In this document: piece after piece, positions 1,860 through 11,664 of the stretch
How positions within the stretch are numbered: the stretch's first letter is position 1
How the letters are laid out: every line of letters begins with the position of its first letter
Source of the DNA: an uncultured cyanobacterium
Lineage (GTDB): Bacteria > Cyanobacteriota > Cyanobacteriia > Cyanobacteriales > CAWUOF01
Direction: 5' to 3'
Assembly (NCBI GenBank): GCA_963744145.1
Contig: CAVUSO010000001.1
Span: 1,678,831 to 1,742,830 of the forward strand
Length of the DNA: 64,000 nucleotides
Program-made: the position numbers and the translations under genes
The notes under the pieces: model-generated
Told to the model about the DNA's origin: nothing
The model's input: the letters and a program-made list of their open reading frames with translations, nothing else
The model's database searches: none

Positions 1860-2969
1860 ATGTTAGAAAAACTTCCTCATTCTTTTGCTCCTAATCCAGA
1901 TCAAGACCTCCCTACTCAGGGGGCAAAAAAAAATATTGTAGCACCAGAGAAAAAGTTTTTTATTTCGTTACTCGTACCAGCTTATAATGAAGCTGTAATT
2001 ATCAAAGAAAACCTAGAGCTACTGTATGAATACATGAAATCCCTGGAAGATGAGTATAACTGGGAAATAGTTGTAGTCAACGATGGTAGTAAAGATGAGA
2101 CTGGAGAACTAGCTGAAGATTTTGCCAGAGATAAAGATCATATTCAGATCTTACACCATTACGTTAACGGTGGTCTTGGTCAAGCATTAAAAACTGGATT
2201 TAGTGCCTGTCAAGGGGATTGCATTATCACCATTGACTTAGACTTAAGTTATGCACCTGATCATATTGAGAGGATGGTCAGGAAAATGCAACAGACTAGA
2301 GCTAAAATTGTCGTAGCTTCTCCTTATATTAAAGGTGGTAAAGTTTCTAATGTCCCTTGGCTAAGACTATATTTAAGCATCTGGGCAAATAAATTTTTAT
2401 CTGCTACTTCTAAAGGAGACTTGCATACTTTAACAGGAATGGTAAGAGCTTATGATGGAATATTTATCAAGTCGATTAATCTCAGATGTATGGGGATGGA
2501 AGTAAATCCAGAAATTATCCATAAAGCGCGAATGTTACGTGCTAAAATCGAAGAAATTCCCGCCCATTTATGCTGGCACCCTCAACCGAAAAAGAAGGTG
2601 AAAAGACAGTCGAGTATGAAAATCTTGAAGCATACATGGGCGATCGTATTTTTTGGCTTTATTTTTAGGCCAGTTATGTTTTTTATTATTCCTGGGTTTA
2701 TCCTATTATTAATTTCTATTTATGCCAGTATATCAACGGCCATTTTGGTATTTAATACTTATCAATTTGAACCACATCATGCCATCGCGCTCGCTTTTGA
2801 TGTATCCCCCCATTTATTTGTAATCGGTGGCATGAGTTTGATGTTGGCAGTTCAGTTAATGAGCTTGGGGATTTTATCTTTGCAAAATAAGACTTATTTT
2901 GAAGAGATGTTTTATTTGGGGACAGCTATCTACAATTCTAAGCAAAATAATCAGGACCAGAATCAATGA
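1860..2969 (+). CDS. GT2 family glycosyltransferase (ArnC / DPM1-like polyprenyl-phosphate sugar transferase) with C-terminal TM helices
   Basis: LLVPAYNEA...VVVNDGSKDET...DLDLSY motifs of GT-A fold GT2; two predicted C-terminal TM segments as in ArnC. Confidence 0.8.
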   Translation: MLEKLPHSFAPNPDQDLPTQGAKKNIVAPEKKFFISLLVPAYNEAVIIKENLELLYEYMKSLEDEYNWEIVVVNDGSKDETGELAEDFARDKDHIQILHHYVNGGLGQALKTGFSACQGDCIITIDLDLSYAPDHIERMVRKMQQTRAKIVVASPYIKGGKVSNVPWLRLYLSIWANKFLSATSKGDLHTLTGMVRAYDGIFIKSINLRCMGMEVNPEIIHKARMLRAKIEEIPAHLCWHPQPKKKVKRQSSMKILKHTWAIVFFGFIFRPVMFFIIPGFILLLISIYASISTAILVFNTYQFEPHHAIALAFDVSPHLFVIGGMSLMLAVQLMSLGILSLQNKTYFEEMFYLGTAIYNSKQNNQDQNQ

Positions 2970-4201
2970 CTAAAGATGTATTATCGCCAGAAAAGATTTT
3001 GACTCTGCCCTCAGATCAAGAAGCTTCAGGTCGAACTTTAGGTGAAGAAGAAATTGCACTACTAACTAAGGCAATTCACAGTGGTACTTTGACCAGTACG
3101 AAAGGCAATTTTGTGAAAACCTTAGAAACCCAATTTGCTAAATCTATTGGGGTTAAACACGCTTATGCTTGTGCATCAGGAACAGGTGCAATTCATGTCG
3201 CTGTTGCAGCGATCGACCCAGAACCAGGTGATGAGATCGTCACCACTGCGATTACAGATATGGGAGCATTAACACCCATTCTTTATCAAGGTGCAATTCC
3301 TGTATTTGCTGATGTCGATCCAAAAACTTGGAACGTCACCGCAGCGAGTATTGAAAAAAGTTTAAGCGATCGCACCAAAGCAATTATCGTGACCCACTTA
3401 TTTGGTAATCCCTGTGAGATGGATGAAATTACTGAATTAGCGCGATCGCGAAATATTCCCATCATCGAAGATTGCGCTCAAGCATTTGGAGCTAAACATA
3501 ACAACCAGCATATCGGCTCCTTTGGAGCAGTAGGTTGTTTTAGCTTACAACAAGGTAAACATATTACCACAGGTGAAGGTGGAATAGTTACCACCAATGA
3601 CGATGCTTTAGCTCGACGGATGTTTTTATTTATTAACAAAGCTTGGGGATATGGTGATCCCCAACCCGATCATTACTTTTTAGCACTTAATTATCGGATG
3701 TGCGAATTGCAGGGAGCAGTAGCAGTCGGACAGTTAGAAAAATTAGACAGTGTTGTCCAGAGCCGAATTACTGCTGCTAATAAACTAACTGAAAAATTGC
3801 AAGGACTAAAGGGAATCCAAACACCATGGGTGAGTGCTAAAAATGTTCACACTTATTGGAAATATTGCCTCAGTGTAGATGGTACAGTTATCCCTAATGG
3901 TCCAGTTGGATTAGCGCAACGCTTAAAAGAAAAAGGAATTTTCTCAGCTCCAAGATATATCCAAAAACCAGCCTTTATGTGCGAAATTTTCCAAAAACAA
4001 AACACTTTTGGTAAATCTCGCTTTCCCTTCACCTTAGCTCGTCCTGAAGCAGTTAATTACGATCGCTCCCTCTTCCCAGGAACTTTTGCTGGGTTAGAAA
4101 GCGTTTTAGTTTTACCCTGGAATGAACGCTACACTGACGAACATATCGACTATATTGCCAATTCCATCTCCCAAGTACATCAGACTCTTGTCGCTCAATA
4201 A
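2966..4201 (+). CDS. DegT/DnrJ/EryC1/StrS family PLP-dependent sugar aminotransferase (ArnB/WbpE-like)
   Basis: GTGAIHVAV...DEIVTTAITDMG...conserved K in FSLQQGKHITTGEGG; 4-bp overlap with upstream GT2 gene. Confidence 0.85.
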   Translation: MTKDVLSPEKILTLPSDQEASGRTLGEEEIALLTKAIHSGTLTSTKGNFVKTLETQFAKSIGVKHAYACASGTGAIHVAVAAIDPEPGDEIVTTAITDMGALTPILYQGAIPVFADVDPKTWNVTAASIEKSLSDRTKAIIVTHLFGNPCEMDEITELARSRNIPIIEDCAQAFGAKHNNQHIGSFGAVGCFSLQQGKHITTGEGGIVTTNDDALARRMFLFINKAWGYGDPQPDHYFLALNYRMCELQGAVAVGQLEKLDSVVQSRITAANKLTEKLQGLKGIQTPWVSAKNVHTYWKYCLSVDGTVIPNGPVGLAQRLKEKGIFSAPRYIQKPAFMCEIFQKQNTFGKSRFPFTLARPEAVNYDRSLFPGTFAGLESVLVLPWNERYTDEHIDYIANSISQVHQTLVAQ

Positions 4202-4246
4202 CCAGCAACAAGATTACTCATTCACACAGAATAAACTAGTAAAATC

Positions 4247-5290
4247 ATGGAAGAAAAAATCAAGTTCGGACTGGTTGGTGCTGGAGGTATCGCTCAATCT
4301 TATGTGCAAGCATTTGGTAGTAGCGAACATGGTCAATTAGTAGCAGTTGCTGATATTTATCCGGAATTAGCACTACGATTAGCCGAAAAAATTCCTGGAT
4401 GTCAAAGTTATGAGTCTTACCAAAAAATGGCGGAATCAGCTGATGTCGATGCTGTCATTATCTGTACACCACCAATTAGTCACCCAGAAATCAGTCTCTA
4501 CTTTTTAGAACGCAAAATTAACGTTTTGTGTGAAAAACCTCTCAGCGTCAATGTCCAAAGCGCCAATCTGATGTTGGAAGGAGCAAAAAAAGCTGGTGTA
4601 ATTCTGACGATGGCTTCAAAATTTCGCTATGTTAAAGATGTAGAAAAAGCCAAAAGCATTGTTGATTCCGGAATTTTAGGTGAGATCGTTTTATTTGAAA
4701 ACGCTTTTACCTCTCGGGTCGATATGAAATCCCGTTGGAATTCCGATCCTAAAATTAGCGGTGGTGGAGTTTTAATTGATAATGGAACTCACTCCGTTGA
4801 TATTATGCGCTACTTCCTTGGACCGATCGCCGAAGTGCAAGTGGTGGAAGGAAAAAAAGTGCAAGGATTACCTGTAGAAGATACAGTCCGGATTTTTGTG
4901 AAAAGTGTTGCTGGTGTAGTTGGTAATGTAGATCTTTCCTGGAGTATCAATAAGGAAATAGATTACTATATCCGGATTTATGGTTCTCTCGGAACTATTT
5001 CTATTGGTTGGAAAGAATCAAAATATCGTCAGGGATCTAACAACGAGTGGATTGCTTTTGGTACAGGTTACGACAAAGTGCAAGCATTTCGCTCTCAAAT
5101 CGATAACTTTGCTCAAGCAATTCGTAAAGAAGAACGTCTGATTATTACTGGTGAAGATGCGATCGCTTCGGTGCAAGTAATCGAAACTGCTTATGAAGCT
5201 CTACGTCAAAGTAATTGGCTTCCGGTTACCCAAAATTTAGCTTACCAGAAAAATGTTGAAGCTCAAGCTGAACCCAGTATAGTGGGCTAA
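4247..5290 (+). CDS. Gfo/Idh/MocA family NAD-dependent sugar oxidoreductase (WbpB-like)
   Basis: N-terminal Rossmann KFGLVGAGGIAQ; family-typical EKPL motif. Confidence 0.85.
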   Translation: MEEKIKFGLVGAGGIAQSYVQAFGSSEHGQLVAVADIYPELALRLAEKIPGCQSYESYQKMAESADVDAVIICTPPISHPEISLYFLERKINVLCEKPLSVNVQSANLMLEGAKKAGVILTMASKFRYVKDVEKAKSIVDSGILGEIVLFENAFTSRVDMKSRWNSDPKISGGGVLIDNGTHSVDIMRYFLGPIAEVQVVEGKKVQGLPVEDTVRIFVKSVAGVVGNVDLSWSINKEIDYYIRIYGSLGTISIGWKESKYRQGSNNEWIAFGTGYDKVQAFRSQIDNFAQAIRKEERLIITGEDAIASVQVIETAYEALRQSNWLPVTQNLAYQKNVEAQAEPSIVG

Positions 5291-5380
5291 TTAAATATTT
5301 AGTTTCAGTTAGGTTATTGTTCAGAAACTGAGTTTTTTTGGCAAAGAAAACTCAGTTTTACTTATCTACAGTTAGGGATT

Positions 5381-6007
5381 ATGGACATTCGCATTCATCC
5401 GACTGCTAACATTGAAAAAGATGTAAAAATTGGTGCTGGTTCGGCAATTTGGGATAATGTTCACATTAGATATGCAACTCAGATTGGTGTAGAGTGCATT
5501 ATTGGTGAAAAAACTTATATTGCTTATGGAGTAAAAATTGGTAATCGCGTCAAAATTAATGCTTTTGTTTATATTTGTACCGCAGTCACAATCGAAGATG
5601 GAGTAATGATTGCTGCGGGCACAATTTTTACAAATGACCGTTTTCCTCGAGCCACAACAGTGGATTTAAAAGAGTTACGCAGTTCCGACCCCGATGAACA
5701 TACTTTACCAACCTTAGTCCGGGAAGGAGCAACTATTGGTGCTGGATGTATCATTGGTAATGATTTAGAAATTGGTCGTTTTGCGATGATTGGGATGGGT
5801 GCTGTAATCACTAAATCAGTACCTGATTTTCATCTCATGATGGGACATCCAGCTAAGTCAGCAGGTTGTGTATGTAGATGTGGACAATTACTACAACGTT
5901 TCTCTTTAGAGAATATTTGTGATTTTAATGAATTAGTTTGTAGTAGTTGTGGATTAAAATATGCAGTCAAAAATGGTACAGTCATTGAACTAACTCCACC
6001 ATCATAA
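5381..6007 (+). CDS. left-handed beta-helix (hexapeptide) N-acetyltransferase, WbpD/PglD-like, with C-terminal Cys-rich Zn-ribbon-like tail
   Basis: Repeated [LIV]G.... hexapeptide units; tail CVCRCGQLL...CSSCG. Confidence 0.8.
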   Translation: MDIRIHPTANIEKDVKIGAGSAIWDNVHIRYATQIGVECIIGEKTYIAYGVKIGNRVKINAFVYICTAVTIEDGVMIAAGTIFTNDRFPRATTVDLKELRSSDPDEHTLPTLVREGATIGAGCIIGNDLEIGRFAMIGMGAVITKSVPDFHLMMGHPAKSAGCVCRCGQLLQRFSLENICDFNELVCSSCGLKYAVKNGTVIELTPPS

Positions 6008-6064
6008 AAGTTCCCTGCTTTTACCTGACTAACGCTGAAATAAATTATATCCAATCAATTAAAA

Positions 6065-7408
6065 ATGAATAAATTAGAAAGCTGGGGTATTGTTGGGGGC
6101 GGAATTTTGGGGATGACTCTAGCTCTCCGTCTAGCTCAACAAGGTAAAAATGTAACTTTGTTCGAGAAAGCAGATCATTTCGGGGGACTTGCTAGTACCT
6201 GGTACATTGGGGATGTGCAGTGGGATCGTCATTATCATGTTACCTTGCTATCTGATACCAGGTTGCGATCGCTTTTAACCGAATTAGGTTTAGAAACAGA
6301 AATGGAATGGGTGATTACCCGAACTGGTTTTTATACCGATGGGAAACTATATTCCATGTCCAATGCGATCGAATTTCTCCGTTTTCCCCCACTAGGTTTA
6401 ATCGATAAAATTCGGTTAGCGTTTACGATTATTTATGCTTCCAAAATTAAAAATTGGCGTGATCTCGAAAAAATTCCTGTCACTGATTGGTTAAAAAAAT
6501 GGTCTGGTAAACATACTTTTGATAAAATCTGGCTTCCTTTATTACGAGCTAAGTTAGGTGAAAACTATCAAAAAGCCTCAGCTTCTTTTATTTGGGCAAT
6601 TATCGCTCGGATGTATGCAGCGCGTCGGACTGGTTTAAAAAAAGAAATGTTTGGCTATGTGCGTGGTGGATATGCACAAATTATTGAGCGTTTTGCTGAA
6701 GTTTTAACTGAGAAAAATGTCACGTTAAAATTAAATCATTCTCTCTCTAAAGTAGAGTCAGGTGCAGATCAGAAAATTAATATTCATTTTGAAAATGGAC
6801 AACAAGAAACTTTTGATCGGGTGATAGTCACTACAGCAGCTCCCATTGCAGCTCAAGTTTGTGCAGGACTAACTCAAACGGAAATATCTAAGTTAAAAGG
6901 GATTGAATATCAAGGGATCATTTGTGCTTCCCTATTATTAAAAAAATCCCTTTCCCCTTTCTATGTTACTAACATTACTGATACTTGGGTGCCGTTTACC
7001 GGAGTAATTGAAATGTCCGCACTGGTCGATCGCAAACATTTTGGTGGTAATGCTTTAGTTTATCTCCCTAAATATGTGGTTCCAGATGACCCAGCTTTTG
7101 CTTTATCAGATGCAGAATTAGAAGAAAAATTTGTTTCTGCTCTCATCCAAATGTATCCCCATTTTGAACGGAGTGATGTGCTAGCATTTCGGGTGTCTAG
7201 AGTTAAATATGTCCTAGCAATTTCGACGTTAAACTATTCAGATATTATCCCACCCATACCAACTTCGATCCGCGGTCTTTATATTATTAATTCTGCCCAT
7301 ATTGCTAACGGAACTCTCAATGTAAATGAAAGTATCCAATTAGCCGAAAAAGCCGTTTCTGAAGTTTTATTTGATCCGGCATATTCAGCAGAATCACCGT
7401 TAGAATAA
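6065..7408 (+). CDS. FAD/NAD(P)-binding oxidoreductase (amine-oxidase / UDP-galactopyranose mutase-like fold)
   Basis: N-terminal GIVGGGILG...LFEKADHFGG dinucleotide-binding motif. Confidence 0.7.
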   Translation: MNKLESWGIVGGGILGMTLALRLAQQGKNVTLFEKADHFGGLASTWYIGDVQWDRHYHVTLLSDTRLRSLLTELGLETEMEWVITRTGFYTDGKLYSMSNAIEFLRFPPLGLIDKIRLAFTIIYASKIKNWRDLEKIPVTDWLKKWSGKHTFDKIWLPLLRAKLGENYQKASASFIWAIIARMYAARRTGLKKEMFGYVRGGYAQIIERFAEVLTEKNVTLKLNHSLSKVESGADQKINIHFENGQQETFDRVIVTTAAPIAAQVCAGLTQTEISKLKGIEYQGIICASLLLKKSLSPFYVTNITDTWVPFTGVIEMSALVDRKHFGGNALVYLPKYVVPDDPAFALSDAELEEKFVSALIQMYPHFERSDVLAFRVSRVKYVLAISTLNYSDIIPPIPTSIRGLYIINSAHIANGTLNVNESIQLAEKAVSEVLFDPAYSAESPLE

Positions 7409-7433
7409 AATCATACCAAACCACCAAAAACCT

Positions 7434-8402
7434 ATGAAACCTATCGCTAGTTTATCCCTCGATCTTGATAATCAATGGTCCTATATGAAAACCCATGGTG
7501 ATCCAGGTTGGGAAAGTTTTCCTTCTTACTTGGATATTGTTGTACCCCGGTTTCTCGATTTTCTCCAAGAACGAGAACTCACCATTACAGTTTTTATTGT
7601 CGGTCAAGATGCGGCTTTAGAAAAGAATCATCAAGCACTCAGAGCGATCGCCAATGCGGGACATGAAATTGGGAATCATTCCTTTCACCATCAACCCTGG
7701 TTACATCTTTATTCTGAGTCAGAAATTGATAATGAAATTGCGATCGCTGAGGAAAATATTCAATTAGCTACAGGGAAAAAAACCATTGGTTTTCGTGGAC
7801 CGGGTTTTAGTATTTCCCGTGCGACTTTGCAAGTATTAGCAAGGAGAGGTTATCAATATGATGCTTCTACTTTTCCGACTTTTCTCGGACCTTTAGCTCG
7901 TGCTTATTATTTTATGACCAGTAAGTTAAGCAAAGAAGAAATGGAACAACGCAAAGCACTTTTTGGCACCCTAGGAGAAGGTTTACGACCCTTAAAACCC
8001 TACCAATGGCGTTTAGATGCTGCGGAAATAATTGAAATTCCTGTGACTACTATGCCAATTTTTAAAGTGCCAATTCATTTCAGCTATCTGCTTTATTTAG
8101 CCATATTTTCTGCTCCTTTAGCACAATTTTATTTTCAAATTGCCCTGCTCATGTGCCGATTGACAGGAACTCAACCATCTTTATTGCTCCATCCCCTCGA
8201 TTTTTTAGGTGGTGATGATGTACCGGAATTAGCTTTTTTCCCAGCTATGAATATGCCCGCTTATAAAAAAATTGCTTTGCTCAGTAAAACAATTGGAATG
8301 CTCTCCCAAGAATTTAAGATCGTCACTATGCAACAACACGCTCACCTAATAAGTGCTGCTAAAATTCCCTTAGTTGAACCCAATTTTCATCATCAAACTT
8401 AA
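7434..8402 (+). CDS. polysaccharide deacetylase (CE4 / NodB-fold), ArnD/NaxD-like lipid-linked aminosugar deacylase candidate
   Basis: LSLDLDN...TVFIVGQD...HEIGNHSFHH pattern parallels ArnD DVD/ASIFF/HAWDHH motifs. Confidence 0.7.
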   Translation: MKPIASLSLDLDNQWSYMKTHGDPGWESFPSYLDIVVPRFLDFLQERELTITVFIVGQDAALEKNHQALRAIANAGHEIGNHSFHHQPWLHLYSESEIDNEIAIAEENIQLATGKKTIGFRGPGFSISRATLQVLARRGYQYDASTFPTFLGPLARAYYFMTSKLSKEEMEQRKALFGTLGEGLRPLKPYQWRLDAAEIIEIPVTTMPIFKVPIHFSYLLYLAIFSAPLAQFYFQIALLMCRLTGTQPSLLLHPLDFLGGDDVPELAFFPAMNMPAYKKIALLSKTIGMLSQEFKIVTMQQHAHLISAAKIPLVEPNFHHQT

Positions 8403-8417
8403 TCAAGTTTAATCTTT

Positions 8418-9992
8418 ATGACCATCAAAATTCCTACATCTCCTATTCACATCGAGCCAAAATTAGTGATTAGTGGATGTATATTTTTAAATCTGTTAAT
8501 TTGTCTGATACTAGGAGCAAATCTCAATTTGTCTTCCGATGAAGCTTATGCTTTCCATACGACCGGAAGCAATCTTAAATATGCCTTCGATCAAGCAATA
8601 AATTTTGAATTGCAACCCCCCCTATATTTTATCATGCTCTGGGGGTGGCGCAGTTTAAAAAGTTCGATTTTTTTCGCCAGATTGTTATCGATTATATTTA
8701 TTACGATCACCCTGACAATTCTGCCCAAAATATCCCGCAGGTTTTTGCCAGAAATTAATCCAGTCTGGCTCGTTATTTTTCTCGCTTTTAACCCTTTTGT
8801 AATTTGGGCTGCTTTAGAAATTAGAGTTTATGCTTTTGTCCTACTTCTGTCAGCTTTATTGTTGTTATTTTTTTTCGATGGTTATTTAGCAGAAATACCT
8901 CAGCATCGAGCTAGATGGTGGTATATATTAGTTGCCATCCTGGCTTTATATACACAATATTATTTAGGTTTCTTTTTAGTTGCTAATGCTTGTGCTTTGC
9001 TAGTTTTAAGACGTTGGCAAACATTACGTGATTATGTGATCGCAATGGTGCCCGTGGGAGTTTGCTTCAGCCCCATGTTATGGTTTTTTTTATCCCATAA
9101 ACAGACTGAGCAACTTGTTTATGCACATACCCACACAAATACTGTAGAAATTATTTCTTTAAGCGATGTTTTTAAACTGATATCTCGGCGCATATTAGGG
9201 TTAATTTTGAGACCAGAATGGATTGGATTTGAACAGCGGGATAGTATCGGATTTTATCTGATTTTTGGGATTGCGGTGATCGCGATCGGTTGGCAAACTA
9301 TTAGATTCCGTCGTCAAATCACTTCTCCTGATCTGGCGATCGCAGTTATTACTGTAGTTTTGATCTTATTTTTTGTTCCCACCTTATATGTGGTCGGACA
9401 ATATGGAGTCTTAAGTCGTCATGTAACTCTGATTTTATTACCATTAACTTTGTTAGTTTTTTCTGTACTCAAAGTATCAATCTTACCAGCTTTTCCCAGA
9501 TTAGAAAAAAAACAAGTTATCATAGTTGTGATTGTGCTGGTACTAATATCACATCTATCTTCTCTGTATGTAACCTATGCAAACATGGCGAAACTAGGTG
9601 ATCAAGTTCGCATTGCTGCTTATCTTCAAGCCCAAGAAAAACCAGGACAACTTATTGTAGTTTTTAATGAGTTTATCGCTCTATCCTTGGGATACCAATA
9701 TACGGGCATCAATCCGCTCGTTACTTTACCACAAGAGTTAACTTTTGAAAAATATGATATGCACCAATATGCCCTAGAAGATGAGGGACAAATTGTCAAT
9801 GCTTTAGCTAAATTTCCTCCCGATCGCCGTACATCTATTTGGCTAGTTAAAACTAATACTTGTGCCTACGCTAATATTGATTTTCATTGTGAAATCTTAA
9901 ATAATTTTGTTAATAAAAATTATCAAATTGAGATCCAGCAAGAATTTTATGGTGCAACCGTAGAATTATTACATCGAAAATCGAAAAATTAA
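8418..9992 (+). CDS. GT-C fold membrane glycosyltransferase (ArnT / PMT / GT39-83-like), about 12 TM
   Basis: Polytopic membrane protein with DE motif (SSDEAYAF) in first extracytoplasmic loop; C-terminal soluble domain. Confidence 0.65.
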   Translation: MTIKIPTSPIHIEPKLVISGCIFLNLLICLILGANLNLSSDEAYAFHTTGSNLKYAFDQAINFELQPPLYFIMLWGWRSLKSSIFFARLLSIIFITITLTILPKISRRFLPEINPVWLVIFLAFNPFVIWAALEIRVYAFVLLLSALLLLFFFDGYLAEIPQHRARWWYILVAILALYTQYYLGFFLVANACALLVLRRWQTLRDYVIAMVPVGVCFSPMLWFFLSHKQTEQLVYAHTHTNTVEIISLSDVFKLISRRILGLILRPEWIGFEQRDSIGFYLIFGIAVIAIGWQTIRFRRQITSPDLAIAVITVVLILFFVPTLYVVGQYGVLSRHVTLILLPLTLLVFSVLKVSILPAFPRLEKKQVIIVVIVLVLISHLSSLYVTYANMAKLGDQVRIAAYLQAQEKPGQLIVVFNEFIALSLGYQYTGINPLVTLPQELTFEKYDMHQYALEDEGQIVNALAKFPPDRRTSIWLVKTNTCAYANIDFHCEILNNFVNKNYQIEIQQEFYGATVELLHRKSKN

Positions 9993-10017
9993 TATGCTAC
10001 TCTGAATTTAGCCAGAT

Positions 10018-10416
10018 TTGCAAAAATACCTAGGAAAAATAATGCTAAGTTTACCAGAATTAGGAATGCTGTTAATGGCAACTATCGGGAGTGTATCCGG
10101 ACAATATTTTCTCAAACAAGGAGCATTAAAAATTGGCAAAGTGACTGCTAGTAATTTGGTCGGTCACATTTTGAGTTTTGCCACCACCCCAGAATTAGTG
10201 ATTGGTATTACTTGTTATGCTCTGGGGGCGATCGCCTATATTTTGGCCATGACCCGGATTAGACTGAGTATTGTTGGACCTTCCTTAGCTTTGAGCTATG
10301 TTTTCTCCGTTTTATTGGGCTACTATGCTTTTCACGAAGCAATTCCTGTCCATCGACTCTTTGGGTTAGGGTTCATTATGTGTGGTGTGATCCTAGTGGT
10401 GTGGGAAAAATCCTAA
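10018..10416 (+). CDS. small 4-TM EamA/SMR-like protein (ArnE/ArnF-like flippase subunit candidate)
   Basis: 132 aa, four hydrophobic helices, last gene of the operon. Confidence 0.6.
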   Translation: MQKYLGKIMLSLPELGMLLMATIGSVSGQYFLKQGALKIGKVTASNLVGHILSFATTPELVIGITCYALGAIAYILAMTRIRLSIVGPSLALSYVFSVLLGYYAFHEAIPVHRLFGLGFIMCGVILVVWEKS

Positions 10417-10955: not shown

Positions 10956-11532
<577 letters not shown>

Positions 11533-11664
11533 GAATCAAACCTCTAATTAATCAGGCATTTCTGAGTCAAAGTTGAAAACTAAAAACTTCAACTAGAGAC
11601 AAAGTTTGTCCCATCATTCTTGTCACTGAACACTTTGCATATAAATTAGGGAGACAAAACCAAG

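Follow-up and report, generated by a model that had tools for sequence, protein, structure and literature searches.

Three-component systems of extracytoplasmic glycosylation, such as GtrA/B/C, CsbB/YfhO, GacI/GacL and the mycobacterial PpgS/Rv3779, consist of a GT2 enzyme that synthesises the polyprenyl-phosphate sugar, a small flippase and an acceptor-dependent GT-C transferase. As a rule, they draw on common nucleotide sugars and leave the lipid-linked sugar unedited. In the Arn pathway of Escherichia coli and Salmonella (ArnA/B/C/D/T/E/F), the sugar is oxidised, transaminated and N-acylated so that its amine is masked, and is then loaded by a GT2 enzyme on undecaprenyl phosphate, deacylated by a CE4 enzyme, flipped by small four-helix proteins and transferred by a GT-C protein. 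In Francisella (FlmF2/NaxD/FlmK) and Bordetella (LgmA/B/C), a GT2 enzyme produces an undecaprenyl-phosphate-HexNAc that is de-N-acetylated on the carrier before GT-C transfer (PMC11279074; PMC4993483). Finally, in the Wbp/Vim pathway of Porphyromonas gingivalis and Tannerella forsythia, WbpA/B/E/D are followed by the CE4 enzyme VimE, which unmasks one amine, proposed to be that of the 2-N-acetyl group (PMC7468200).

An eight-gene operon with probable donor-sugar genes

In the window, that is, the whole 64-kb stretch of cyanobacterial DNA that was analysed, eight open reading frames (ORFs) lie on the + strand, exactly where the first-pass annotation had placed them. They had been described as an operon with short or overlapping junctions, and the ORF listing agrees with this: successive ORFs are separated, from 5′ to 3′, by −4, 45, 90, 57, 25, 15 and 25 bp. 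A second, independent assembly of this organism (L001) encodes identical proteins, the last one at 99%, and the eight genes are thus considered intact. Seven of the eight domain assignments were directly confirmed by Pfam and NCBIfam profile searches. The GC content of the cluster, 0.381 versus 0.396 for the window, is inside the window's own range and, therefore, gives no compositional hint of recent transfer.

Three of the genes are expected to provide the donor sugar. The first encodes a DegT/DnrJ/EryC1 PLP-dependent sugar aminotransferase (DegT, positions 2966–4201; PF01041, 7.8e-87), with a median identity of 64% across related loci and PDB matches that include perosamine synthase (3bn1, 2.7e-57), WbpE (1.7e-39) and ArnB (6.6e-39). 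DegT matches 4-aminotransferases (perosamine synthase, LegC and PseC) with higher scores than WbpE; consequently, it is only the next two enzymes that point to chemistry at C3. One of them is a Gfo/Idh/MocA NAD-dependent sugar dehydrogenase (GFO, 4247–5290; PF01408, PF02894 and PF22725), whose top NCBIfam match, aligned over its full length and below cutoff, is the archaeal UDP-GlcNAc 3-dehydrogenase NF040723 (2.6e-36). Its PDB matches include 3q2k and 3q2i (~1e-23), labelled just 'oxidoreductase' and 'dehydrogenase', which we take to be WlbA, a WbpB homologue. Judging by sequence, GFO is a probable nucleotide-sugar 3-dehydrogenase. The other is a left-handed beta-helix (LbH) N-acetyltransferase (5381–6007) of WlbB/WbpD-like type. 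Its top PDB match over residues 4–199 (3mqg/3mqh, 3.5e-33), labelled 'Lipopolysaccharides biosynthesis acetyltransferase', is presumably WlbB, and the next ones (4mzu, 7s43 and QdtC) presumably likewise act as N-acetyltransferases on 3-amino sugars. Scores are far lower for the 4-N-acetyltransferases PerB and VioB.

Enzymes of the proposed lipid-linked sugar

The first gene of the operon encodes a GT2 protein (1860–2969; PF00535, 2.4e-34) with the architecture of ArnC, GtrB and dolichol-phosphate-mannose synthase (DPMS). Among solved structures, its nearest relatives are without exception polyprenyl-phosphate glycosyltransferases, namely Pyrococcus furiosus DPMS (5mlz, 9e-23), ArnC (9hwj, 1.7e-13) and Synechocystis GtrB (5ekp), and it shares with them a C-terminal architecture of transmembrane helices, in this case two hydrophobic helices at residues ~280–298 and 321–339. 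No QxxRW-type processivity motif was seen when the sequence was read by eye. Cyanobacterial orthologues with 55–60% identity occupy the same position in their loci.

The deacetylase (7434–8402) had been called ArnD/NaxD-like, a description that holds for the CE4 (NodB) fold (PF01522, 1.3e-20) and fails for both families. It reaches only 19.5 bits (4.7e-4) against the ArnD model, which has a cutoff of 382, and scores higher against PdaB/PdaA and against the XrtA-type polysaccharide deacetylase model TIGR03006 (68.8 bits, 4e-19; residues 23–257 aligned with profile positions 22–226 of 272). As NaxD belongs to the YdjC superfamily and is not a CE4 enzyme (PMC11279074), likeness to it is an analogy only. 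The top PDB match of the window's CE4 is HP0310 (3qbu, 5e-10), and the protein has one weakly hydrophobic segment (residues 222–240). In Acidobacteriota, an XrtA-type CE4 domain that scores 271 bits against TIGR03006 is fused to a GT2 domain.

Between LbH and CE4 lies the gene of an FAD-dependent oxidoreductase (6065–7408), a flavoprotein that domain searches place in the amine-oxidase/phytoene-desaturase/protoporphyrinogen-oxidase fold. It falls in an NCBIfam family of its own, PRK07233, annotated 'hypothetical protein'. Phytoene desaturase, protoporphyrinogen oxidase and HpnE are its closest relatives, at an identity of only 16–18%, and in genomes it is accompanied by genes for sugar and lipid-carrier enzymes instead of carotenoid, haem or hopanoid genes. 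Fusion proteins join it to CE4 (in which the CE4 portion is 51–53% identical to the window's CE4), to methyltransferases and to GT2; the FAD-GT2 fusion, P0343, carries an EamA-like membrane domain at its C-terminus. Because of these fusions, the flavoenzyme probably acts on the lipid-linked intermediate.

Candidate proteins for transfer and flipping

The 524-aa protein encoded at 8418–9992 has no Pfam or NCBIfam match of its own, although 10 of 20 members of its family match PF13231 (PMT_2). From its predicted fold and its homologues, it is considered a GT-C membrane transferase. Its top structural matches are Pmt4, ALG12, ArnT and Pmt1/2, all of which take polyprenyl-monophosphate sugar donors; the alignment with ArnT is the longest of them (419 residues). 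An Asp-Glu pair (D41-E42) directly after the first transmembrane helix is invariant, and the C-terminal alpha/beta domain is probably periplasmic. Of the earlier label 'GT-C transferase (ArnT-like)', the GT-C part stands. The ArnT part does not, since the ArnT model has no match among the operon proteins and GT-C is about equally distant from ArnT and from protein mannosyltransferases. It forms a family of its own within the PMT/ArnT (GT39/GT83-like) superfamily.

The last gene (10018–10416) encodes a small EamA/SMR-like membrane protein with four hydrophobic segments (PF00892, 8.6e-7) that matches the ArnE (2.3e-8) and ArnF (5.3e-8) models below cutoff. Its start is more likely the ATG at 10042 (124 aa), as on L001, than the TTG at 10018. 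The protein and the C-terminal membrane region of P0343 are 33% identical (E 7e-11), and it is a candidate flippase subunit or GT2 partner. In general, membership of the Arn families is not borne out, as none of the eight proteins reaches the cutoff of a curated NCBIfam Arn model: ArnC gives 59.8 bits against a cutoff of 529, and ArnE/ArnF give ~34 against 92 and 99.

A conserved cassette with exchangeable transferases

Synteny was counted at 49 genome loci with a GT-C homologue and enough flanking sequence. All six upstream genes are present at 31 of them, FAD and CE4 are both found at 37, and the cassette is wholly absent within 10 kb at 12. The order GT2-DegT-GFO-LbH-FAD-CE4 is kept in three phyla (Cyanobacteria, Acidobacteriota and Eremiobacterota), with identities of 50–78% for DegT, GFO, LbH, FAD and CE4 in the conserved block. 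As the same genes recur together near GT-C homologues, their grouping is not due to chance. A literature search found no paper on this cassette. The flavoenzyme, which had been noted to have no counterpart in the Arn or Flm pathways, indeed has none and is, moreover, a conserved core member of the cassette.

By contrast, GT-C and the flippase candidate are exchanged between lineages. In otherwise orthologous clusters, GT-C is replaced by GT-C proteins without BLAST similarity, although a GT-C of some subfamily accompanies the six genes in every full cluster examined. Likewise, the small EamA-like gene is not kept elsewhere: other loci have a different EamA protein or an LPG_synthase_TM protein in its stead. 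Relatives of GT-C also occur in Chloroflexota and Dormibacterota bins. Sister clusters carry optional methyltransferases and acyl-activating genes, and those of Aminicenantales also a WbpS-like amidotransferase, a UDP-sugar 6-dehydrogenase and a 2-epimerase.

A proposed pathway and its alternatives

Most likely, the product of the operon is an unusual diamino sugar that is loaded on a membrane lipid carrier, loses an acetyl group and is attached at the cell surface. GFO would oxidise C3 of UDP-GlcNAc or a close UDP-HexNAc, DegT would convert the keto sugar to an amino sugar, and the WlbB-like enzyme would yield a UDP-2,3-diacetamido-2,3-dideoxyhexose. The membrane-anchored GT2 would then transfer this sugar to polyprenyl (undecaprenyl) phosphate, and CE4 would take one N-acetyl group off the lipid-linked sugar, exposing an amine. 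By analogy with VimE, a CE4 enzyme that de-N-acetylates a Wbp-type di-N-acetyl sugar (PMC7468200), we lean towards the 2-N-acetyl group; NaxD offers a precedent for de-N-acetylation on undecaprenyl phosphate (PMC11279074). The flavoenzyme would act on the same intermediate at the membrane surface, the small EamA-like protein would assist its passage across the membrane, and GT-C would transfer the sugar to a periplasmic or outer-envelope acceptor (LPS, another glycan or protein). Observation covers which genes are present, their folds and families, their conserved order and the fusion proteins. No protein passes the equivalog cutoff for any characterised enzyme, so that the chemistry of each step is deduced, and so are the topology, what serves as acceptor and whether CE4 or FAD acts first. 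Architecture, closest solved relatives, conserved synteny and fusions nevertheless give good support to the logic first proposed, in which a cytoplasmic N-acetylated amino sugar is served by loading on polyprenyl phosphate by an ArnC/GtrB/DPMS-type GT2, a deacetylase, a small membrane protein as flippase candidate and GT-C.

With a probability of roughly 0.6, we regard the operon as a three-component-type extracytoplasmic glycosylation system (GT2, flippase and GT-C) with its own donor-sugar pathway. It resembles such systems in that orthologous clusters exchange their GT-C and flippase modules, and departs from them in that donor synthesis and editing have a dedicated module of high conservation. 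As in Wbp/Vim, enzymes of WbpB/E/D type would make a 2,3-diacetamido sugar on which a CE4 deacetylase acts next, and the best model for the window's CE4, the XrtA/PEP-CTERM-type TIGR03006, also counts as a likeness. The operon differs in having the flavoenzyme, in lacking a VimA-type aminoacyl transferase, in the absence of WbpA from the window, and in passing the sugar to a polyprenyl-phosphate GT2 and GT-C instead of a cytoplasmic glycosyltransferase. The Flm/Lgm systems use plain GalNAc or GlcNAc and, in NaxD, a YdjC-type enzyme in place of CE4, and have neither a dedicated sugar pathway nor a flavoenzyme.

With the same donor pathway, GT-C could decorate a surface glycan (O-antigen, exopolysaccharide or sheath polymer) or O-glycosylate envelope proteins in a Gtr/GacL/YfhO- or PMT-type manner, which we consider a serious possibility that falls a little short of even odds. 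It is less probable, and in our view rather unlikely, that the operon modifies lipid A in the manner of Arn, Flm-NaxD and Lgm, by placing a cationic amino sugar on its phosphates, and that the acetyl group from LbH is a transient protecting group, taken off by CE4 while the sugar is on the carrier. The Arn analogy does hold as a working logic: the order of steps is shared, both have a GT2 enzyme, a four-helix protein and the GT-C and CE4 folds, and the steps can be matched one by one (GFO/DegT/LbH with ArnA/ArnB, GT2 with ArnC, CE4 with ArnD, GT-C with ArnT and EamA with ArnE/F). The long structural alignment with ArnT also favours lipid A, as does the fact that most host phyla identified, Cyanobacteria, Acidobacteriota and Eremiobacterota, are generally regarded as diderm. 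The lipid A amino-sugar systems of NaxD (PMC11279074) and LgmABC (PMC4993483) share this logic too. The operon differs from Arn in a hexose 3-amino pathway of Gfo/Idh/MocA and WlbB-like enzymes where Arn uses ArnA, an acetyl instead of a formyl mask, one small membrane protein instead of the ArnE/ArnF pair, and an extra conserved flavoenzyme. Against the lipid A reading, the Arn models are unmatched or far below cutoff, CE4 resembles XrtA-type enzymes more than ArnD, the GT-C swaps fit varied acceptors better than conserved lipid A, and GT-C relatives extend to Chloroflexota and Dormibacterota. The methyltransferases and acyl-activating genes of sister clusters suggest that the amine is often further modified and not kept as a charge. 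A scheme without a lipid carrier, in which a polymerising or direct-acting GT2 is combined with partial deacetylation of a finished polymer by CE4 (as for PNAG, PgaC/PgaB) or with the flavoenzyme to form a carotenoid or hopanoid glycoside (CrtQ/CrtP, CruG), is very improbable, given a short GT2 with two C-terminal helices as in polyprenyl-phosphate synthases, full-length solved relatives led by DPMS and ArnC, no visible processivity motif, co-occurring flippase-like genes and an ever-present GT-C that would have no role.

Within the glycosylation system with its own donor pathway that we favour, the flavoenzyme is a part whose role no known lipid-carrier amino-sugar pathway explains. The two leading candidates for its reaction are an oxidation at or next to the unmasked sugar amine and a modification of the polyisoprenoid chain. 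If the flavoenzyme oxidised the amine away, the product of the operon would not be cationic.

Operon structure and genomic setting

Eight genes of the window form an operon on the forward strand. These encode a GT2 glycosyltransferase (1860-2969), a DegT aminotransferase (2966-4201), a Gfo/Idh/MocA dehydrogenase (GFO, 4247-5290), an LbH N-acetyltransferase (5381-6007), a flavoenzyme (FAD, 6065-7408), a CE4 deacetylase (7434-8402), a GT-C glycosyltransferase (8418-9992) and an EamA-like protein (10018-10416), the last of which likely starts at the ATG at 10042. The junctions consist of a single 4-bp overlap and gaps of 15-90 bp. The open reading frames lie exactly where the first-pass annotation had placed them, and all eight proteins recur on L001, which was assembled independently from short reads of the same organism. 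Thus, the genes are intact and the operon is real. The GC content of the cluster (0.381, compared with 0.396 for the whole window) is inside the window's own range and gives no compositional sign of recent transfer. Scans for promoters and terminators were uninformative and returned sites no commoner than in shuffled sequence.

The 7.63-Mb contig that holds the window comes from a cyanobacterium, and a phycocyanin operon (cpcBA-linker-lyase) lies directly downstream. Its cpcB gene (11013-11560) is frameshifted at about position 11347, leaving a 142-residue frame that ends in a nonsense tail. At this site the window reads AA, whereas L001 reads G and encodes an intact protein of 172 residues; most likely, the frameshift stems from a fault in the assembly of the window's genome and does not mark a pseudogene. 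On the other side of the operon, the long 5′ intergenic region carries palindromic repeats of G/C runs at 1010-1090 (CCCCCTTAAAAAGGGGG ... CCCCCTTTTGAAGGGGGATTTAGGGGGATTTAG), which resemble the short repeat elements dispersed in cyanobacterial genomes. Two further open reading frames are found upstream, one of 40 residues with a single helix (1198-1320; MDVKLVIAVLTVVFTVATLFFGTKNGFYDSDNYHGNGSAH) and one of 185 residues that is Ser/Thr-rich and lipoprotein-like (393-950); neither has a significant match in Pfam.

Probable enzymes for the donor sugar

DegT is clearly a sugar aminotransferase (Pfam, 7.8e-87). Its nearest characterised relatives are 4-aminotransferases, namely perosamine synthase (2.7e-57) as well as LegC and PseC, and the matches to WbpE and ArnB (about 1e-39 each) rank below these. 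GFO matches the archaeal UDP-GlcNAc 3-dehydrogenase model over its full length (2.6e-36), although at 125.7 bits it stays below the cutoff of 450. In the PDB, it matches 3q2k and 3q2i, which we take to be WlbA, at about 1e-23, a score similar to those of other Gfo family members. The match of LbH covers the whole protein (residues 4-199, 3.5e-33 to PDB 3mqg/3mqh, presumably WlbB, the UDP-GlcNAc3NA 3-N-acetyltransferase), and its assignment to the WbpD/WlbB type is made on this match and not on a curated cutoff. The next PDB matches are presumably 3-amino-sugar N-acetyltransferases too, and those to the 4-N-acetyltransferases PerB and VioB are far weaker.

Taken together, the matches of GFO and LbH make a 2,3-diacetamido-2,3-dideoxyhexose the probable product, a question on which DegT is neutral. 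A homologue of the UDP-sugar 6-dehydrogenase WbpA was not found by tblastn in the 64-kb window and may be encoded elsewhere in the genome. Consequently, the simplest reading is a non-uronic form that would start from UDP-GlcNAc, as the archaeal pathway does. The operon lacks an ArnA-like gene and has Gfo/Idh/MocA and WlbB-like enzymes instead.

Proteins of the proposed membrane stage

The GT2 protein (369 residues, PF00535) ends in two C-terminal hydrophobic helices. Its best solved relatives are the dolichol-phosphate-mannose synthase of P. furiosus (9e-23), ArnC (1.7e-13) and GtrB of Synechocystis. Judged from its sequence, its architecture is that of a polyprenyl-phosphate sugar synthase and not of a polymerising synthase. 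The 322-residue CE4 protein (PF01522) is matched best, over nearly the full profile, by the XrtA/PEP-CTERM-type deacetylase model TIGR03006 (4e-19, 68.8 bits), followed by PdaB (51.8 bits) and PdaA. Its PDB matches are peptidoglycan and polysaccharide deacetylases; ArnD is not among them, the CE4 fold itself being present, and the ArnD model NF011923 gives only 19.5 bits (4.7e-4; cutoff 382). The last gene encodes a four-helix EamA-like protein. The identity of the 524-residue GT-C protein comes from structure prediction and from Pfam matches of its homologues, since the protein had no match in sequence searches of Pfam, NCBIfam or the PDB, nor had a profile of 20 homologues any match in the PDB; these searches did not place it in the ArnT family (GT83).

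A GT2, a small multi-helix membrane protein and a GT-C are thus co-located in one operon, which in general resembles three-component extracytoplasmic glycosylation, with swappable GT-C and flippase modules. The first-pass annotation had read the operon as an acetyl-protected pathway of the Arn/NaxD type. The working logic shared with Arn, Flm/NaxD and Lgm stands, while membership in the ArnD, ArnT and ArnA families does not, nor is the suggested transfer to lipid A supported. The ArnC equivalog model gives 59.8 bits (cutoff 529), and ArnE and ArnF give 34.2 and 33.3 bits with the EamA-like protein (cutoffs 92 and 99); all three scores are below cutoff, and for the ArnC type the architecture and the nearest solved relatives of the GT2 do fit. 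Arn uses the pair ArnE/ArnF, whereas a single EamA-like protein is found here. The comparison with NaxD does not extend to the deacetylase itself, as NaxD has a YdjC-type fold (PMC11279074) and the window enzyme is a CE4 protein outside the YdjC superfamily. The closest match for the sugar and the CE4 part of the operon is the Wbp/Vim system.

A conserved cassette with variable partners

With a profile of the GT-C family, 80 genome loci were fetched, mainly from Pyrinomonadaceae and other Acidobacteriota and from Eremiobacterota (Cybelea, Baltobacteraceae), with scattered cyanobacteria (Elainella, Pegethrix, Nodosilinea, Pleurocapsa, Microcoleus and Nostocales). When the eight window proteins were compared by tblastn with the 49 loci that have adequate flanks, the full GT2, DegT, GFO, LbH, FAD and CE4 set was present in 31 and FAD with CE4 in 37, and 12 had none. 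The order DegT-GFO-LbH-FAD-CE4 is kept across loci. Median identity to the window proteins is 53-64% for these five, compared with 35% for GT-C and 31% for GT2, and no orthologue of the window's EamA-like gene was detectable in the other loci. A search from the flavoenzyme recovered this six-gene block in Tolypothrix campylonemoides VB511288, in Pseudanabaena sp. FACHB-1998 and in two more assemblies. What follows the block varies: the GT-C may be of the PMT_2, PMT or GT87 type, the membrane protein EamA or LPG_synthase_TM, and there may be one or two SAM methyltransferases, an AMP-binding/carrier-protein/acyltransferase set or a second amine-oxidase-like protein. The Pseudanabaena GT-C has no BLAST similarity to that of the window. 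The picture is one of a strongly conserved cassette for donor synthesis and editing that feeds interchangeable flippase and GT-C modules.

Two loci of Aminicenantales (L064, 1587-9682; L080, 5015-14864) carry a compact CE4-GT2-FAD module that adjoins a 2-epimerase, a WbpS-like amidotransferase of the asparagine-synthase type and a UDP-sugar 6-dehydrogenase; in L080, a GFO-LbH fusion protein lies beside it. These loci carry a uronamide-type version of the pathway. In Acidobacteriota, the GT2 has an N-terminal CE4 domain of the XrtA type (271 bits to TIGR03006). For instance, a pyrinomonadacean locus (L002, 2108-3916) encodes a 602-residue fusion of this domain with DUF3473 and GT2, and equivalents occur in other Acidobacteriota. 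Acidobacterial clusters thus have two distinct CE4 deacetylases, so that the sugar might lose both acetyl groups in these lineages. Immediately after the GT-C, an open reading frame of about 69 residues is conserved in 17 acidobacterial loci (L002, 11530-11739, and 16 others; 31-100% identity); its product, which has no family assignment, might be a small membrane protein that works with the GT-C.

Tailoring genes follow FAD and CE4 in four sister clusters (L087, 15001-19906; L088, 12401-15685; L084, 11352-12278; L004, 7883-8731). The set comprises SAM methyltransferases, a second flavoprotein, which is PRK07208-like, and an AMP-binding enzyme accompanied by a carrier protein and acyltransferases; none of these is found in the window cluster. 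Their presence suggests that some lineages methylate the unmasked amine or acylate it again.

The flavoenzyme

The cassette has a wide and previously unremarked distribution, and one conserved enzymatic step in it is not explained by known pathways of this kind. As had been noted from the sequence, the flavoenzyme lacks a counterpart in Arn and Flm, and the known systems compared here include no such enzyme. No publication on the cassette was found in searches covering cyanobacterial or PRK07233/polyprenyl-phosphate/Wbp contexts.

The protein belongs to NCBIfam PRK07233, named "hypothetical protein" (486 bits, cutoff 252); its next model is HpnE (98 bits), and in the PDB the only relative beyond the dinucleotide-binding motif is MAO-A (1.5e-5). 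The family is large: 7,999 of 8,000 candidates scored match at E ≤ 1e-10, the top 120 relatives are at least 67% identical, and E ≤ 1e-30 is reached by 1,000 of the 50%-identity clusters that make up a representative library. Among the best 150 representatives, 10 are fusion proteins. In three (P0241, P0270 and P0344) the partner is a CE4 domain 51-53% identical to that of the window, in six it is a SAM methyltransferase, some weakly NodS-like, and in P0343 it is a GT2, the fusion protein ending in a membrane region that shares 33% identity with the window's EamA-like protein (E 7e-11). Some of the fusions could be gene-calling artefacts, although the FAD-CE4 fusion recurs at three levels of divergence. 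The fusions, the fixed place of the flavoenzyme between LbH and CE4 and the occurrence of compact CE4-GT2-FAD modules all link it to the lipid-linked stage at the membrane. Its helical domain, at about residues 112-188, is rich in invariant aromatic and basic residues, among them the R187-R188/K192-K193 loop, and would suit an anionic amphiphilic substrate.

On a bolder reading, to which we give a probability of roughly one in three, the PRK07233 flavoenzyme would catalyse a novel reaction on a polyprenyl-phosphate-linked sugar, either flavin-dependent oxidation or epimerisation at the amine that CE4 unmasks or saturation or desaturation of the carrier's isoprenoid chain to give a dedicated carrier. 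The enzyme would form an editing module with CE4, in some lineages with a fused methyltransferase, that feeds interchangeable GT-Cs and is common to Cyanobacteria, Acidobacteriota, Eremiobacterota and others; the estimate covers all of these parts jointly. The fusions to CE4 and methyltransferases favour oxidation at, or adjacent to, the amine that CE4 exposes. The GT2 fusion favours modification of the isoprenoid chain, as do the nearest characterised relatives, HpnE and phytoene desaturase. The third option is a redox-neutral rearrangement. A role in recycling the cofactor of a WbpB-type enzyme, or its 2-hydroxyglutarate, is disfavoured for the flavoenzyme, because its fusion partners are CE4, methyltransferase and GT2 and not GFO, and because compact CE4-GT2-FAD modules exist. 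C6 oxidation in place of WbpA is rejected, since flavoenzyme and UDP-sugar 6-dehydrogenase occur together in sister clusters.

Proposed pathway

In the proposed scheme, GFO, DegT and LbH would convert a UDP-HexNAc through 3-keto and 3-amino intermediates to a UDP-2,3-diacetamido sugar, which GT2 would move to polyprenyl phosphate. There, CE4 would partly de-N-acetylate the sugar and the flavoenzyme would perform a further step. The EamA-like protein would then carry the intermediate across the membrane, and GT-C would transfer the sugar to an envelope acceptor.

As for which acetyl group is removed, the Wbp/Vim precedent speaks for that at 2-N (PMC7468200). This is weakly favoured by L064, the Aminicenantales locus where CE4-GT2-FAD is present and no 3-amination genes, which may lie elsewhere in the genome, are found within 10 kb. 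Alternatively, by analogy with formylation and then deformylation in Arn, the newly added acyl group could serve as a transient mask.

Significance

Envelope chemistry is little known in cyanobacteria and in the abundant soil phyla Acidobacteriota and Eremiobacterota. The high conservation of the cassette (50-78% identity across phyla, with 1,000 flavoenzyme clusters) implies that it probably specifies a common surface sugar, undescribed so far. If the scheme is right, this would be a cell-surface 2,3-diamino-2,3-dideoxyhexose with one amine free or further modified, which would be relevant to surface charge, phage receptors and desiccation biology and to how cells resist cationic peptides. 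The scheme would then also give a defined, testable role to a large family of "hypothetical" flavoproteins and widen the range of chemistry on lipid-linked sugars, which is known to include deformylation (ArnD), deacetylation (NaxD) and epimerisation by DprE1/E2.
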